Notes: a model not told the origin generated them from the sequence alone. A DNA stretch of 63,917 bases, filler included, from Rhabdomonas costata (GCA_019059605.1; 43 parts of 43 records of this genome joined end to end with filler, not necessarily neighbours in it), one strand, 5' to 3'; shown: positions 5,401 through 59,577, counted from the first letter of the whole stretch. Made by a program: numbers and translations.

Positions 5401-8132
5401 GAGGCGGGGAAAGAAGCTCCCAAGAGCGCAACCGTTTTCATCGTAACGCATCAACAACCATATATGGAATTCTATGCCCTCCCGGTACACTACCAGGACC
5501 ACAATTAAGGAGAAATTTTCGCAAAAACCTTCCCAGCAAATTTTTTTATGAACTCCTTACAGCTGCTGATTATGCACACGAGTAAGATGCAGTTTAGCGT
5601 CATCAACGACAACAACACCATCATGTCTCTTCACAACTGACAATTGAAAAATTGGCGGCGGACGATCAAACTCATTTTAATTAAAAAAAGGCCCACGGGC
5701 AAACCTCAACCACAATATCCAAACTGTGTGAGCTGTGATTAAGAAAGATGGCAAGCATCCGGGTGGACACCTTTGGATTGCGGAATCTGCAGCAACCGAA
5801 TATAACCTAATAATATAACCCAATAATATCCCCCAGTAGATCCAAATATGTCCNNNNNNNNNNNNNNNNNNNNNNNNNNNNNNNNNNNNNNNNNNNNTTA
5901 ATTAATTAANNNNNNNNNNNNNNNNNNNNNNNNNNNNNNNNNNNNNNNNNNNNTACAGTGCGTGAGGAGGTGAGGAGGTCAAGTGGTGTGGATGTGACAA
6001 GTGCAACGGGATGGAGGCTGCCGTCCAACTCAATGCGAAGGACCGTGCTTCGGGTCCTACTTCTGAGGTGAAATACAAAACACGAAGGGTACTAGAAAAT
6101 GAAGCTCCTCTTTACACCCAACAGGTGGTCAACGGTCTGCGGAATGTGTAATAGGAGGGGTCCTGCGGCGCAAAAATGGGAGTGGGAACAAACGAAAAAA
6201 AAACATGCAATGCATGAGTGAGTGGGTATGTGGCACGAGCGAAGGACTGTCTTCGGTGTCTTAAACTATCCAGCAATTCAAACCTTCAAAAAAAAAACTG
6301 TGGTTTTGCAGTTGATCGACACATAGTCAAGCAACGTGAGCGAGTTTCGCAGGTGCGCTCTCTACCCACAGAGCAGTAGAGTCGGCACGTCGCCGCGTCA
6401 GTGCGCTAGTCAGAAGAGTAGCTGTGCCGATCCTTCAGTCACCTCCAGGCAGTCATCAGAGCCGTTATGCTGTATGCTGTGGTGGCTTTGAGGGCATTCC
6501 TCCAAATTCACTCTTCCTGCTCTGCGTAAGTGCACCTTCTGGGCCAGCTAAAAGGCGCCGCGAGGGACAGGCTCGGAACCATGGGAGCCGCGGGATGAAG
6601 CAAGGCATCACACAAGAGAGACGGCTTAGCCACTTGGCGCCTTCTGGGCAGCTCTGACAAAGGGCATCACGTACCGCTCCTGAAAACAGCAGCAAGGTCA
6701 AAAGTCCTCTCGTCCGTCAAACGAGGTGGGATTGAGGGGATCGCAGTGAAGGTTCCGAGATCCGCAAATGTTGCAAGGGCGGATCCTAGCTGACAGAAAA
6801 ATCAATACAATACTAATCATTTGGGGTTTTTTGGGAGGGCTACTTACCTCATTGTTTTGCAGTCGCCCAAACAATTATTGGCTGTTTCCAGACCAATGTG
6901 CGGAGTGTACCTTTTTCAAGGTTCAAGACCGAAGCGTTTCCTTCCAAACGCACTTTGCTGTTATCCCATGTGCGTTTCAAATGAAGAACTTCCCTGATGT
7001 TCTCTTGTTTTACGTTTGTGGGCGCGTTTGGGTGAAAACTCGACAGCAGCTGACGCTTTACGAAGAAACCCTGCGCATTTTGTGGTTTCTACCACCAAGC
7101 TCCCCAACAGTTCTGTCGCTGCGCCACCGATGTAGTGGCTGCATTGGGAAAAAGAGAATAATTCAGAATATCGCATTATTTATTCGTCTTTCTTCGTCTT
7201 TCTTGCCGCACCGTCCAGTTCGTGATGGTGTAGCGGCTGAGAGCCTTCTGGCGAGCCCTCTGGGCCATCGCGAAATAGGTCGTGTTGAAATTCGCCAGCA
7301 CCTCTCGGATCCGGAGGTGCTGGCGAATTTCAACACACCCCNNNNNNNNNNNNNNNNNNNNNNNNNNNNNNNNNNNNNNNNNNNNTTAATTAATTAANNN
7401 NNNNNNNNNNNNNNNNNNNNNNNNNNNNNNNNNNNNNNNNNTTTGTTGTGTGCGAAGAGTTCAGGGCGCGTACAGTTTGTCAATCTTTCATCATGCCTTC
7501 TTTAATGTTCTCCCCAGAAGCCCCAGCATCCGCCATGATGAAAGATTGACAAACTGTACGCGCCCTGAACTCTTCGCACACAATTATACTCACTCGTTTA
7601 TGTCGACTGACGGCCACCACTTGCGCATCACAGCCACGACCACACAAATCAACTGTTGGCTCCGATTCATTGCGGGTGTGCCAACGATCATGAGCATTTT
7701 TTAAAAAGTGAACGGGTACCAACAAACTAGATGGAACCCTGTGGATCTCTGATCGGTAAAATGGGGTGAAGTCGCCGTTACGAGGACCAGTAACAGCTAC
7801 CCAAGTTGTGGAGAAGCCTCCCCTTATCCATGTGACGTGTGTTGCTTGTGTCGCACTGATCCAGACTGACCGAAACTTGAGAAGTATGAGGGCGATTCAG
7901 ATGTCTTCTTGGACTCCAATAAGTGTGCATGCGGTCAGAGGGTGTGCAAAGGGTGTAAAGTGTCAGAGGGACCATGTTGAAAGCACAGTACAGTGGTGTC
8001 AGCGGGTGTTGAATGTTCCTAGAGATTCAGAAAAGATTCACGAAGTACCACATACCAATGATGAGTTTGGGTTTGTGGCACCCAGTGGGTTTACCAGTGG
8101 ATGTCCAAAAACTATTTTGAGAGTGTGCATAC

Positions 8133-19615: not shown

Positions 19616-20158
19616 CTGCTGAACGCTGTCGGCCTGCTCCTGCGAGGTGCCGTGCCTCTGGGGCTGCTTGCGAACGATCTTCGCAGCATAAGTCTGATTG
19701 CTTTTGTTGCAGACCACCAGCTTGATCTTACCATAGGCCCCTCGTCCTGCACGGGAAGAGGGTGCGACCCCTGACAGGAACAGGACAGCAAAGCTCTGAG
19801 ACTCCGCAAAAGTACCGAACTCGCTGTGGTGCTAAAAGTATTACGCAAACAACAAACCAGCACGTGAAGGTTGTGGAGGACAAAAAAAAGACGCAACGAT
19901 GATGCGCATGCAAGTCCACGCCGAGCTTCAGTCCCCACCCCCCCACACACACGCAGTGGTCGCGGTCACCAACAACTTAGTCAACCAGGCAACAGCCAGC
20001 GCGCAGTGCGCCCAGGACAGGCATCTTTTCAGCTGGGGGGGGGTAACCTGTACCAGTACCTGAACTCGTTTCCATATAAGCCCCTTAGGCCCCCACGTTC
20101 CCGCCCTGGTCACAGGCTCTTGCTGCGTCCAGGCGCTGGCCTCCATCCTTGAATCCAT
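19616..20158 (-). CDS. Ser/Thr protein kinase N-lobe (MAP3K/STE11-like), exons ~20158-20054 and ~19747-19616
   Basis: WKRVQVL + GRGAYGKIKLVVCNKSNQTYAAKIV gives the glycine loop and subdomain II Lys. Second exon ends CAG|gtctgc. The first junction is irregular (see findings). Confidence 0.8.
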
Positions 20159-31167: not shown

Positions 31168-31372
31168 NNNNNNNNNNNNNNNNNNNNNNNNNNNNNNNNN
31201 NNNNNNNNNNNTTAATTAATTAANNNNNNNNNNNNNNNNNNNNNNNNNNNNNNNNNNNNNNNNNNNNGGTGAGTTTTGTACACATTTTGTTATAAACGTT
31301 TGCCATTGAAACGCATTTAAACTCGGCCACAACGGCCATCAACACCCCAGACTTCTGTGCCAGTGCTGAGAC

Positions 31373-32314
31373 CTGGATTGTGGTCCCTCCAGGGGAGCAC
31401 ACGGAGTCCTTAACAATGGCGGGGTGCCTGCCCCGAAGCACCATCATCGCCGTTCCCAGCACCGTCTGGGCGGCCTGTTTGGGAAGGGTAGGATGGCCCG
31501 CTCTCTCCACCGGAGGTGCAGAACACCAAACAGAACGCCCAGGAGAAGTTGCGAGGCAGGGTGGTGGAACACGCACCAGAAAGAGAGGGACTAGCGGAAC
31601 TTTGGAGGAATCAGAGTCAGTCGGAGCCAGTAGGTAGATGCGTGAGAAAGCCATACGAAGATAAGTCCACGATAAAATGAGGGAAAACATGAATTTAGCA
31701 ACCAGAAAATGCGCAGTGGAGTATAGTGGGTATAGATTCAGAGATTCTGGCGGGAGCAGGGAGCAGGGGGGGAGGGTTGCAGGGCAACAGAGAGCACCAA
31801 GGACTGCGCCACAGCCCGGGGAAGGCCAGAGCGAACCCCACCATCCGTGAGGGCCTCAATGAACATCGCCACAAAGGCTGCAATCGTGCGTGCGTGTGCG
31901 TCCGTGTGTGTGCGTGGGGGGGGGGGTATGTGCGTGCGTGCATGTGTGTTAACCTCATGGTGCACTGGTTGAAGCAAGGGCTGTTGTCACCACCTCTAAC
32001 TGCCCACTGTTTGTGCCCTGTGCTTTGGGCTGGTGCATCCTGGCTGATGTCGCAGAGGCAAGGTTGAAGGCCAGGGCGCTCGTCCCCCTCTCTCCCCATA
32101 AGCCCCATGGTGAGGGGTGCGTGTGTGCATACTGGGGGTGAGAAGAAGGAAGAGAGTCACTGGTGCTCATTCCCCGTGCCCACTACCATACCAGGGCCAC
32201 TTCCACTGAGCCCAGTGACGGCGTCCAGGAGCCTCTCCGGGACCTCGAAGGCCACCCCGACGCTCTCCAGGAAGGCCTTGATCACCGCACCCTCCTCTGG
32301 GGCGAATCCAGGGC
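31373..32314 (-). CDS. proC: Pyrroline-5-carboxylate reductase, exons 32314-32192, 31877-31798, 31474-31373
   Basis: SVG...VPERLLDAVTGLSGSGP | AFVAMFIEALTDGGVRSGLPRAVAQSL | AAQTVLGTAMMV..HPAIVKDSVCSPGGTTIQ; GT-AG, phases consistent. Confidence 0.96.
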
Positions 32315-47526: not shown

Positions 47527-47631
47527 NNNNNNNNNNNNNNNNNNNNNNNNNNNNNNNNNNNNNNNNNNNNTTAATTAATTAANNNNNNNNNNNNNNNNNN
47601 NNNNNNNNNNNNNNNNNNNNNNNNNNGTTGT

Positions 47632-47682
<51 letters not shown>

Positions 47683-48088
47683 TATGCGCGCGCGCGCGCG
47701 AATTCCTCTTTAGTTTTTTATTCAAGCAGACACAACTGCCCAGACACAACTTGTCAACAGAAATCGTCCTGCCTTCCAGCAGCATGGGGGGGAGGGGAGG
47801 ACTGGAGGACCTGGCCCTGCCGGAACTGGAGCTAAACTGGCCGGTTTGGGCCGATACTTGGTGGTGCAATGGTGGTCTTTCTGAGTTGAGTTCACTAGCA
47901 GTTTCTCAGCCTGCAGCGGCATCTGTCCTGTGTATATGGCTGCAGGGTACATACCTCCTATGTGCACATTCGCCTCGGACTGGGCCTGGGATGGCCTTCC
48001 TGCTAGTCTGCACTCTCGCAACCAAAATGTACAGGTATGTGTTGTTCTGTTTGCCTTATTCTTGTTTGTTTTCTTTTGTGGAAATCAG

Positions 48089-48323
48089 GTACGCTGTCAT
48101 CCTGATGGACTGCTCCCTGCCCACGATGTCCGGGATGGAGGCCACTCGTCGGATCCGCCAGATGCCCCACCACCGGCGCACCCCGATCATCGCGGTGACG
48201 GCGAACCAGTCGGCGGAGAGCCGGCTGAGCTGCGCGGAGGCCGGCATGAGCGAGTTCATGCCGAAGCCCTTGACGGCGCAAAACTGGCAGGCCATCGCGG
48301 CGCTGTATGCAGGGCACCAGTAG
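48089..48323 (+). CDS. Response-regulator receiver domain, terminal exon (likely a hybrid histidine kinase)
   Basis: YAVILMDCSLPTMSGMEATRRIR..TPIIAVTAN..CAEAGMSEFMPKP: phospho-acceptor Asp, Thr and KP all present; stop at 48321-48323. Confidence 0.92.
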
Positions 48324-58111: not shown

Positions 58112-58575
58112 CCCCATGTCTTACTCGATGCCTCGTAAGTCATGGGGCCCCTGTATGAGAAGAAGGCCCTCCGGGCCACGCTCTCGCTACGCTCGTCACT
58201 CCTACGTCGTTCCTCGCTACGCTCGTAATGCAGTGGTTCAGTCGCTCCCCGCTGCGCGGTACGCTCCTTCACCTTCCTACGCACCCCACTCATGCTCGTA
58301 CCTCGCATGGTGGGCAGCGATGATGAGGATACACATTTGAGTCGTCAGTCAGTCGCTACGCTCCTTCCTTCCTCCGACGTCGTGACTCTCCGTACGTCGA
58401 GTCCCTCCTCTGTATGGTGGTTCACTCCACCGCCACGCGGCTACGTTCACGGGTCACTCACTCGCATCAGTTCATTCGCTCCTGACGTCCTCGCTCGCTA
58501 CGCTTCGCTCGTCCTCTGCATCTTTCTTTTGATCACGGGTTCACATTCGTTCTCGTCGCGATGCTCCTCGTACTC
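58112..58575 (-). other. Array of GNA-triloop / tandem G·A hairpins; putative ssDNA-structured element
   Basis: Recurrent minus-strand module N-GA-GC-[GTA]-GC-GA-N' and longer variants; CTCGCTACGCTCGT is repeated exactly at 58183 and 58213. Confidence 0.75.
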
Positions 58576-58599
58576 ATTCAAAGGGGGGGCTGCACGCAG

Positions 58600-59230
58600 G
58601 CCTTGGCACAGATCCCGTCCTTCGCGGTGGGGGGAACTGCGGGCAGCGGACCCCCCGAGGGCCTCACCCCCCGCGGCGGCGCCCCTGCAGATGGGCAGGC
58701 GCCGGACTCACTGAGTGGTGGGGGGCGGCTGAGCCTCTCGGAATTCCTGCAGTGCTGTGTGGCGGGGCCCTTCCGTGCCCTGCGCCACCACAGTCACACC
58801 CCTGAGGGCACCCCCGAGGCACGCCTCCAACCCACACGCCTCCTTGTTTTGGGGGGGCTGCTCCTTCTTTTTCCTTTTGATTTGACTTGGGTGCCGTTGT
58901 CCAAGCAAAAGACAACACACGAAAGGAAAGTCGCCACTGTTCCCCGCAACCACGTCTCCAACGTTCTCCGATTTTCCTTGAGTTCCAGCAAAGTTGCTGT
59001 TCTGTTACTTACGCTGATCGCTCATTGGCTTTGGCTGGGCACGTAACCATATGGATGGGTTGTGCGTGGTGTGGTGTGTGTTGCAGGGCTTTGGCGGTGG
59101 GGACGAGGAGTGCCTGGCCGAGCTGGAGCGCCAGCGGGTGGCGTTCGTTTATGAGGAGGACTGCCGGGGGCTTGGGGTCAGCCCCTGCTCAGCAGTGCTG
59201 AGCGCTTTGCGTGATCCTACCACCGCCAAG
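58600..59230 (+). CDS. Two probable exons (~58600-58758, 59087-59230), possibly the N-terminal region of an LRR protein
   Basis: AG/GT-bounded GC3-rich blocks; VYEEDCRGLGVSPCSAVLSAL resembles the Y...C...GV.P cap that precedes RNI-like LRRs. Confidence 0.5.
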
Positions 59231-59577
59231 GTGTCGCTGTGGGCTGCCCCTCTCCATCGCCCACCCAAGCAGTAACTCAGTCATGTGAAAATCTCGCAGA
59301 GTGCAACTTTCAGCAATGGGATTACGAAGAGGAGCAGAATGCTTATACCAATGGGGTGGTCAGGAAAAGGAAACTACGCTGATACACTGATGAAGTTGCT
59401 GCTTAGTTGTCCGTGTCCCCACCATGTTACGCTGGGGAGTTTCTGTTTTGGTTTTCNNNNNNNNNNNNNNNNNNNNNNNNNNNNNNNNNNNNNNNNNNNN
59501 TTAATTAATTAANNNNNNNNNNNNNNNNNNNNNNNNNNNNNNNNNNNNNNNNNNNNGAAGGATCTTTGGGCGCGGCT

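Follow-up and report, generated by a model that had tools for sequence, protein, structure and literature searches.

The minus strand of a non-coding stretch of Rhabdomonas costata DNA (GCA_019059605.1), located at positions 58112-58577 (466 nt) of the window analyzed here, that is, of the whole stretch of 63,917 nt (1-63917), can be parsed into a row of 12 small hairpins that take up 297 of the 466 nt and follow one design, in which G-N-A triloops are closed by Watson-Crick pairs alternating with tandem 5'-GA/5'-GA steps. This design goes beyond chance, is hidden as far as Watson-Crick pairing is concerned and is specific to the one mismatch that is known to be stabilizing. We tentatively read the array as a cis-acting single-strand signal, which could be a priming site, an origin or an end region, belonging to a virus-like or mobile replicon, with a probability of roughly 0.35. 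An earlier note on this DNA had reported about ten minus-strand hairpins, and hairpins were indeed recovered at the places it gave. Forty-three unplaced contigs, each of 1386-1409 bases, make up the window; they are arranged by size, with filler between them (a 12-base stop linker with 44 N on either side), so that contigs adjacent in the window are not genomic neighbors. The array's contig spans 58070-59456 (1387 nt) and, with a GC content of 0.59, is the most GC-rich of the 43, the sample in general lying around 52%. The array begins some 40 nt from its left end, in agreement with the earlier suggestion that its left part runs off the contig.

The hairpins, in order of their window coordinates, are the following.

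H1, 58112-58147, minus strand: 13 Watson-Crick pairs, one GA/GA step, a symmetric A/A mismatch and a GCAT loop.
H2, 58165-58177, minus strand: GGCCC-GGA-GGGCC; five Watson-Crick pairs and a GGA triloop, without a GA step.
H3, 58183-58195, minus strand: C-GA-GC-GTA-GC-GA-G; the GCGTAGC mini-hairpin core with one GA/GA step.
H4, 58196-58212, minus strand: GA-AC-GA-C-GTA-G-GA-GT-GA.
H5, 58213-58225, minus strand: an identical second copy of H3.
H6, 58235-58273, minus strand: outer stem GGT-GA-AG-GA-GC, a 3x3 G..A/G..A internal loop and the inner mini-hairpin CCGC-GCA-GCGG.
H7, 58285-58314, minus strand: CCCAC-CATGC-GA-G-GTA-C-GA-GCATG-(A)-GTGGG.
H8, 58341-58375, minus strand: 35 nt, with eight Watson-Crick pairs alternating with four GA/GA steps around GC-GTA-GC.
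H9, 58376-58410, minus strand: ten Watson-Crick pairs, two GA/GA steps and a GTAC loop.
H10, 58430-58440, minus strand: CCGC-GTG-GCGG, with Watson-Crick pairs only.
H11, 58490-58511, minus strand: C-GA-GC-GA-(A)-GC-GTA-GC-GA-GC-GA-G; two GA/GA steps and one bulged A, read by eye.
H12, 58545-58577, minus strand: eight Watson-Crick pairs, three GA/GA steps and an ATC loop, which is not GNA.

GA/GA steps are present in ten of the 12 hairpins (20 steps in total, with a maximum of four in series, in H8), G-N-A triloops in eight (six GTA, one GCA and one GGA), and no G·U pair is necessary anywhere in the parse. H11 had to be read by eye because the scoring program cannot put a bulge beside a GA step, and H3, H4 and H5 can alternatively be stacked as a single 43-nt hairpin (58183-58225). 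The heptamer GCGTAGC occurs four times, with minus-strand 5' ends at 58503, 58361, 58222 and 58192, GCG-N-AGC has two more matches (minus-strand 5' ends at 58508 and 58257), and CGTAG is found eight times in the 530 nt scanned. The array contains both the published mini-hairpin motif, namely a GC-GNA-GC heptamer or C-GNA-G with C:G closure, and the CGAG block, in which a Watson-Crick pair, a tandem GA/GA and another Watson-Crick pair stand in series; the C-GA-G context itself accounts for 10 of the 38 GA-step sides. A core, GAGCGTA(G/C)CG, is common to H3, H5, H6, H8 and H11, which are connected by short direct repeats, and the first GA step is closed by a C:G pair in H3, H5 and H11 and by a G:C pair in H6 and H8, so that both sides of the stem have changed. 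From its sequence, H6 looks like an H8-type hairpin in which a second mini-hairpin has been inserted behind the GTA loop. The sample is small, and the relationships between hairpins would fit either duplication with selection for pairing or the nested insertion of small hairpin elements.

The statistical weight of the array was evaluated with two schemes. A strict grammar, which admits a G-N-A triloop, Watson-Crick pairs and GA/GA steps and bars bulges, recovers five hairpins, all of them on the minus strand; 2000 dinucleotide-preserving shuffles yield a mean of 0.13 and a maximum of two, with none of the 2000 reaching five, and the rest of the 63.9-kb window, both strands included, yields five trivial matches with two to three Watson-Crick pairs each. 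The second scheme is a hairpin score that tolerates bulges and can be computed with or without GA/GA steps. Once GA/GA steps are allowed, the score of the minus strand rises to 263, compared with 78 for the plus strand. Shuffles preserving 2-mers, 3-mers and 4-mers score 84.0 +/- 23.7, 92.5 +/- 23.5 and 97.7 +/- 25.4, with maxima of 140, 172 and 187, respectively, and 0/200 reach 263 in each set, while 252 scoring windows placed on the other 42 contigs average 65.9 +/- 27.8 and never exceed 151. The Watson-Crick-only score is 78, not significantly different from that of shuffles (61.6 +/- 22.0), and GA alone among the 16 dinucleotide steps gives a signal (z 8.2; next best 1.06). Hence, the shuffles, the background windows and the comparison of steps indicate that the symmetry is real, invisible to Watson-Crick pairing and specific to GA. 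The shuffled controls that had been proposed for this stretch therefore fall short of it, and the one-sided folding that the earlier note described is confirmed by both schemes; strand- and orientation-specific folding of a non-coding region is also a character by which single-strand origins and initiation signals, such as G4 ori(-), ssi and the sso of rolling-circle plasmids, are recognized. Conventional nearest-neighbor folding of the stretch as DNA (ViennaRNA) is unremarkable, with z values of -1.14 for the minus and -1.35 for the plus strand, from which it follows that the signal of the array depends on counting GA/GA steps as pairs.

The stability to be expected of GA/GA hairpins here rests on published nuclear magnetic resonance (NMR) and melting chemistry. 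The GCGNAGC fold, composed of two G:C pairs and a sheared G·A, is reported to be resistant to urea and nucleases and far weaker as RNA, with melting temperatures (Tm) of 76.5 C for the DNA octamer d(GCGAAAGC) and the heptamer d(GCGAAGC) and of 39 C for the RNA octamer r(GCGAAAGC); natural mini-hairpin sites reported in the same source are the G4 complementary-strand origin, RSF1010 ssiA and the N4 promoters (PMC13037366). Consecutive CGAG blocks of a human promoter repeat have likewise been reported to form hairpins, with Tm of 50-77 C and NMR support (PMC10085684). What the earlier note took as established, namely the stability of GNA loops and sheared G·A pairs and their occurrence at phage and plasmid origins, is borne out by these two sources. 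By analogy, the GTA, GCA and GGA triloops and the GCGTAGC cores suggest loops of DNA type rather than of RNA type.

According to the reading we favor, the minus strand, purine-rich and non-coding at 58112-58577, would fold whenever it becomes unpaired into a row of about 12 DNA-type mini-hairpins. Each hairpin would nucleate at a G-N-A triloop, mostly GTA, with C:G or G:C closure, and would grow through Watson-Crick pairs alternating with tandem 5'-GA/5'-GA steps (CGAG blocks), while the pyrimidine-rich plus strand could not fold likewise and would stay open. Published work makes it plausible that such a beads-on-a-string row would be poorly handled by single-strand binding proteins and nucleases, and the array may thus represent the structured non-coding part (a second-strand priming site, an origin or an end region) of a replicon that either resides in host DNA or was co-assembled with it. 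Folding in the cell, a cellular role and the belonging to a replicon other than the host chromosome are what we infer. This reading is ranked first because rows of roughly a dozen such hairpins have so far been seen in viral genomes and because repeats are enriched at the ends of unplaced contigs; the position of the array at a contig end and its excess of CpG within an otherwise CpG-poor sample were also counted in its favor. Its lead over an explanation intrinsic to the host is small.

The viral comparison was based on two copies of the 11-mer GA-GC-GNA-GC-GA, the tip of H3 and H5, lying within 8-38 nt of each other in IMG/VR. The numbers found, which count stretches and not lineages and include several near-duplicate loci, are these, together with those of two controls.

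GTA loop pair, IMG/VR: 68 stretches.
GCA loop pair, IMG/VR: 76 stretches.
GAA loop pair, IMG/VR: at least 117 stretches.
Control with the motif reversed, IMG/VR: 10 stretches.
Control with the loop order changed, IMG/VR: 15 stretches.

As a close pair, the tip is 5-10 times commoner than the two scrambled controls in the viral loci (L001-L068, L085-L273 and L403 onwards). Across the 68 GTA loci, at least one Watson-Crick pair is present outside the GA step in 130 of 160 distinct contexts, and at least three, of varied sequence, in 47 of 160, as against 0 of 17 contexts with at least three pairs in the flank-pair control. In a similar vein, viral zippers with two GA steps, matched by a degenerate pattern, have both spacer pairs complementary in 65 of the 108 distinct matches listed, where about 6.8 would be expected, and one of them (L507) has the same outer arms as H6. 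Several viral arrays are largely or wholly confined to one strand, with hairpin numbers per strand of 7/0 in L190, 12/0 in L261, 9/1 in L248 and 6/0 in L168. The carriers of the tip are mixed, comprising a microvirus, two small Rep-encoding genomes, numerous tailed-phage fragments beside terminase or portal genes, giant-virus bins and a virus of 191,100 nt. The microvirus (L006) is a clear case of single-stranded DNA (ssDNA), its hairpins being located on the one strand that bears all open reading frames (ORFs). To judge from these sequences, the tip is a genuine recurrent natural module with covarying flanks, and this supports the hairpins of the window as real structures.

Two of the viral genomes present features of their own. 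In the single 191,100-nt genome (L050-L062), purine-rich degenerate repeats derived from a GCGTAGC core are found on either strand, depending on location. In the 8513-nt contig L261, identical rows of six mini-hairpins (loops GAA, GCA, GCA, GTA, GGA and GAA) occur on one strand at 2612-2744 and 7261-7393, 4649 nt apart. This double row could reflect a repeated end or a genome assembled beyond one round, and no annotated phage relative of the L261 array was found.

Bacterial and archaeal genomes of many phyla also contain this 11-mer pair, in at least 120 stretches (L283-L402), a count that has no control. There it often forms tandem units with a 5-bp stem around the GA-zipped tip, and nine of these loci, among 13 searched against Rfam, matched no family for the tip. 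A metagenome scan with a 19-mer of H7 returned six loci. In five of them (L079-L083), from related high-GC bacteria, the exact 19-mer lies shortly before rplN and belongs to a hairpin that spans the ribosome-binding site, with the start codon at its end and a second GA-rich hairpin upstream; these are orthologous bacterial sites, and we take their likeness to H7 as a chance match. The sixth locus, on the organelle-like metagenome contig L084 (3069 nt), comes from a sequence full of GC-rich palindromes among AT-rich spacers, three of which have C-GA-G-GNA-C-GA-G tips on the same strand, and one of these has 26 nt in common with H7.

A number of observations weigh against assigning the array to a virus-like or mobile replicon. 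Besides the redundancy of the viral counts, the viral arrays have a single GA step per hairpin and the scored viral windows rest mainly on Watson-Crick stems, so that the array is not simply one more member of this set; the difference between GA and Watson-Crick scores is at most 135 in the best 25 scored viral windows, against 185 here. Sequence likeness to the viral loci does not extend beyond 20-26 nt. The end region of a T7-type phage (L218), which has a 20-mer in common with H8, was rejected as a true analogue, as its score of 75 does not differ significantly from 50 +/- 19.6. Since the module is carried by double-stranded DNA (dsDNA) phages and cells besides ssDNA viruses, it is no proof of an ssDNA stage and points to no single type of replicon; its use as a marker of ssDNA elements, implicit in the earlier note, is contradicted by its presence in dsDNA phages, giant-virus bins and cellular genomes. 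No similarity to the array was detected in phage or plasmid records, no other copy of the array or its hairpins in the other 42 contigs (about 58 kb), and no viral contig encoding relatives of the two flanking ORFs. No Rep/HUH, recombinase, reverse-transcriptase, replication or capsid gene was found on the 1387-nt contig, in which just 857 nt lie beside the array, and these resemble host DNA in their CpG observed/expected ratio (0.64) and G/C runs.

Particular types of element were considered as well. A CRESS-DNA or geminivirus-type origin was rejected, given that the contig contains neither the nonamer nor a Rep gene; the one match to the nonamer consensus in the window, at 19837, is outside the array's contig. 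With regard to Helitrons, no ORF family was found on the contig and no Helitron-type end was seen on reading the right border, the left end being missing. As for small interspersed palindromic elements (Bpu or REP/MITE-like), which consist of many dispersed copies of one unit, none was seen among the roughly 58 kb of the other 42 contigs. The proposal of an element with an ssDNA phase is upheld as regards the one-sided, DNA-type fold, but finds no counterpart in an associated Rep/HUH, recombinase or reverse-transcriptase ORF, in a nonamer or in a second copy.

The most credible competitor of the replicon reading, and nearly as probable, is that the array is non-B DNA intrinsic to the host, belonging to a CpG-rich promoter-proximal or intronic region whose purine strand folds when transcription or replication opens the DNA and which serves the host itself, possibly through factor binding, polymerase pausing via hairpins of the exposed strand, or a replication barrier. 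The evidence that bears on it comes first from the remainder of the contig.

58600-59456, plus strand: rest of the contig, 857 nt of host-like composition (CpG observed/expected 0.64, G/C runs), with two exon-like open stretches that lack homologues.
58600-58857 and 59087-59230, plus strand: the exon-like stretches, both open frames.

The CpG observed/expected ratio stands at 1.31 for the array, compared with 0.64 for the remainder of its contig and values of 0.55-0.99 among the other 42, and the G/C homopolymer runs of the 857-nt flank are similar to those of other contigs. In compositional terms, these data argue weakly for a location of the array in host DNA, and the high CpG content of the array, resembling that of an unmethylated island, argues weakly that it may be either young, unmethylated, or made of CG-containing blocks under selection. 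As might be expected of the 3' part of an intron, pyrimidines dominate the plus strand as far as an AG at 58599. Precedents can also be invoked, since a CGAG stretch in the AUTS2 promoter is the sole eukaryotic nuclear case found (PMC10085684) and since GCGAAGC and GCGTAGC in the exposed non-template strand are reported to be recognition sites of Bacteroides NusG paralogues, like the ops hairpin of RfaH (PMC11685472). However, twelve unlike hairpins over 466 nt far exceed any described site, and no gene can be demonstrated beside the array: protein searches returned no homologue for either exon-like stretch, which leaves the 'host exon' proposed by the earlier note, like its acceptor at 58599, unproven. 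Moreover, plus-strand sense would make the folding strand the template, which is not exposed in a transcription bubble.

Considerably more doubtful is the explanation that the stretch has no function, being a purine-rich low-complexity region grown by local duplication of a core, for instance C-GA-GC-GTA-GC-GA-G, that is self-complementary under the GA rule, with hairpins as a by-product. Because CGAG-type words pair with their own direct repeats under this rule, duplication alone can make apparent stems, and both the core and direct repeats linking H3, H5, H6, H8 and H11 and the (GGAA)n-like and (GACT)n-like runs that compose H8 are in keeping with such an origin. Yet shuffles that preserve 4-mers fall far below the observed score, H1, H7, H9 and H12 lack the common core, the arms of H7 and H8 are inverted rather than direct in order, and the pair closing the first GA step is exchanged on both sides. 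Tandem Repeats Finder, furthermore, reports just two small arrays (period 15 with 2.9 copies, listed also as period 7, and period 17 with 2.3 copies), which rules out a simple or tandem satellite.

Somewhat more remote still is a bolder form of the replicon reading, in which the array would be the origin or an end of a eukaryotic replicon or mobile element of a kind not yet described, one that passes through a single-stranded stage and uses purine-purine zipped hairpins, containing as many as four G·A steps in tandem, as cis-signals in place of Watson-Crick stems. Ordinary folding and repeat tools would be blind to hairpins so zipped. If this were true, GA-zipped GNA mini-hairpins would constitute a common structural currency of selfish DNA across bacteria, archaea, phages, giant viruses, plant mitochondria and protist nuclei.

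A minus-strand transcript folding into the same hairpins is a further alternative, and an improbable one. Tandem G·A pairs are stable in RNA also, and a minimum-energy fold with RNA parameters, which reward 2x2 GA loops, recovers H1, H6, H7 and H8. The minus strand nevertheless folds no better than the plus strand (z -1.74 and -1.80, ViennaRNA), and the parse uses no G·U pairs. The best Rfam match reaches 22.4 bits (E 0.19) against a threshold of 44, which rules out a known structured RNA. Triloops on two-pair stems are of the DNA type, in line with the low Tm reported for the RNA octamer (PMC13037366).

Other identities were rejected more directly. A coding exon is ruled out, as no frame is open across the stretch and both Pfam (0 families on four ORFs of the contig) and PHROGs (0 matches on nine ORFs of the contig) are empty; frames, domain searches and the repeat search thus agree with the earlier view that the region is neither a known coding exon nor a simple satellite and that no associated protein is visible. 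The longest overlapping ORF, which runs through the junction, has one marginal low-complexity match (E 6e-4; phmmer, 1.84 billion proteins). An organelle origin was likewise discarded, with no tRNA and no organelle gene on the contig. Finally, an assembly artefact, that is, a chimera or stray phage or bacterial DNA whose neighborhood would be meaningless, is suggested by the make-up of the window, which gathers unplaced contigs of some 1.39 kb including at least one foreign member (1-1388, 23% GC), by the extreme GC content of the array's contig and by the frequency of the hairpin module in phages and bacteria, but it is as improbable as the RNA alternative in view of an 857-nt flank that contains no long ORF, phage family or Pfam family and has the CpG depletion and homopolymer runs of the sample, and of a GA-specific symmetry not expected from an artefact.

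Some other contigs of the window deserve a brief mention. The contig at 1-1388, foreign to the remaining ones, encodes a 290-aa ORF with a ribonucleotide-reductase barrel domain (E 1.6e-8) and could stem from a contaminant, a symbiont, an organelle or a giant virus. Pfam identifies exon-like pieces, interrupted as by introns, of a response-regulator receiver domain (47628-48320, plus strand) and of pyrroline-5-carboxylate reductase (31268-31855, minus strand), which marks the source as a eukaryote with introns and about 52% GC. The latter has no close relative among 5.8 billion proteins, the best being 76% over one third of the query.

If the fold forms in cells, this would be the longest and most G·A-dependent natural hairpin array found, in a eukaryotic setting for which just a 60-nt promoter repeat had previously been described; word and sequence searches of the literature, with most subscription journals and supplements outside their coverage, found no such array described in a eukaryote. 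The ordinary values of both the Watson-Crick-only score and the ViennaRNA z illustrate that strand-specific DNA signals can escape tools based on Watson-Crick pairing, and the combination of a GNA loop, Watson-Crick pairs and GA/GA steps provides a search grammar for such signals. H8, with its eight pairs and four GA steps, and H6, with its nested hairpin, are well-defined oligonucleotides for biophysics. Given that mini-hairpins are reported to disturb sequencing (PMC13037366), arrays of this kind may also account for contig breaks.

Among known systems, the GCGNAGC mini-hairpin sites of G4, ssiA and N4 resemble the array in that it has four GCGTAGC copies and more C-GNA-G tips on one strand only, and those sites are reported to function as single-stranded DNA only (PMC13037366). 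As described there, however, they comprise one to three hairpins in a defined replicon with known enzymes, whereas the array has twelve, mostly extended by GA/GA steps, on a contig without a recognizable gene. The human AUTS2 promoter contains, about 150 nt upstream of the transcription start, a 60-nt CGAG-rich stretch reported to form CGAG-block hairpins, and thus provides the same series of C:G, sheared G·A, A·G and G:C stem pairs in eukaryotic nuclear DNA (PMC10085684). That stretch is a simple (CGAG)n repeat at one site, whereas the array is a non-repetitive 466 nt of unlike hairpins with mixed contexts (G-GA-G/C-GA-C, T-GA-A and others). In the Drosophila dodeca-satellite and human satellite III, the purine-rich strand folds through G·A pairs and its complement does not. 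The array is alike in that only the purine-rich strand folds, via G·A pairs, but fold-back satellites are long tandem arrays of one short unit and the stretch studied here is not tandemly repeated. Centromeric fold-back satellites with tandem G·A pairs are treated in PMC11014236. The Bpu element, which occurs in the mitochondria of Cycas and Ginkgo, is a mobile hairpin whose GTA tip is GA-zipped; its 36-bp consensus is reported to carry the 11-nt core of H3 and H5 between complementary arms (PMC8297867). Bpu is a single unit dispersed in about 500 organelle copies, in contrast to one cluster of unlike hairpins with no tRNA or organelle-gene sign. Lastly, the viral arrays L261, L190, L248 and L168 share with the array 6-12 small one-strand hairpins, the tip GA-GC-GNA-GC-GA and variable Watson-Crick closing pairs. 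Without sequence homology to the window array, they are built on one GA step, a nearly single core and mostly GAA or GCA loops, whereas the array combines up to four GA steps with varied cores and mostly GTA loops.

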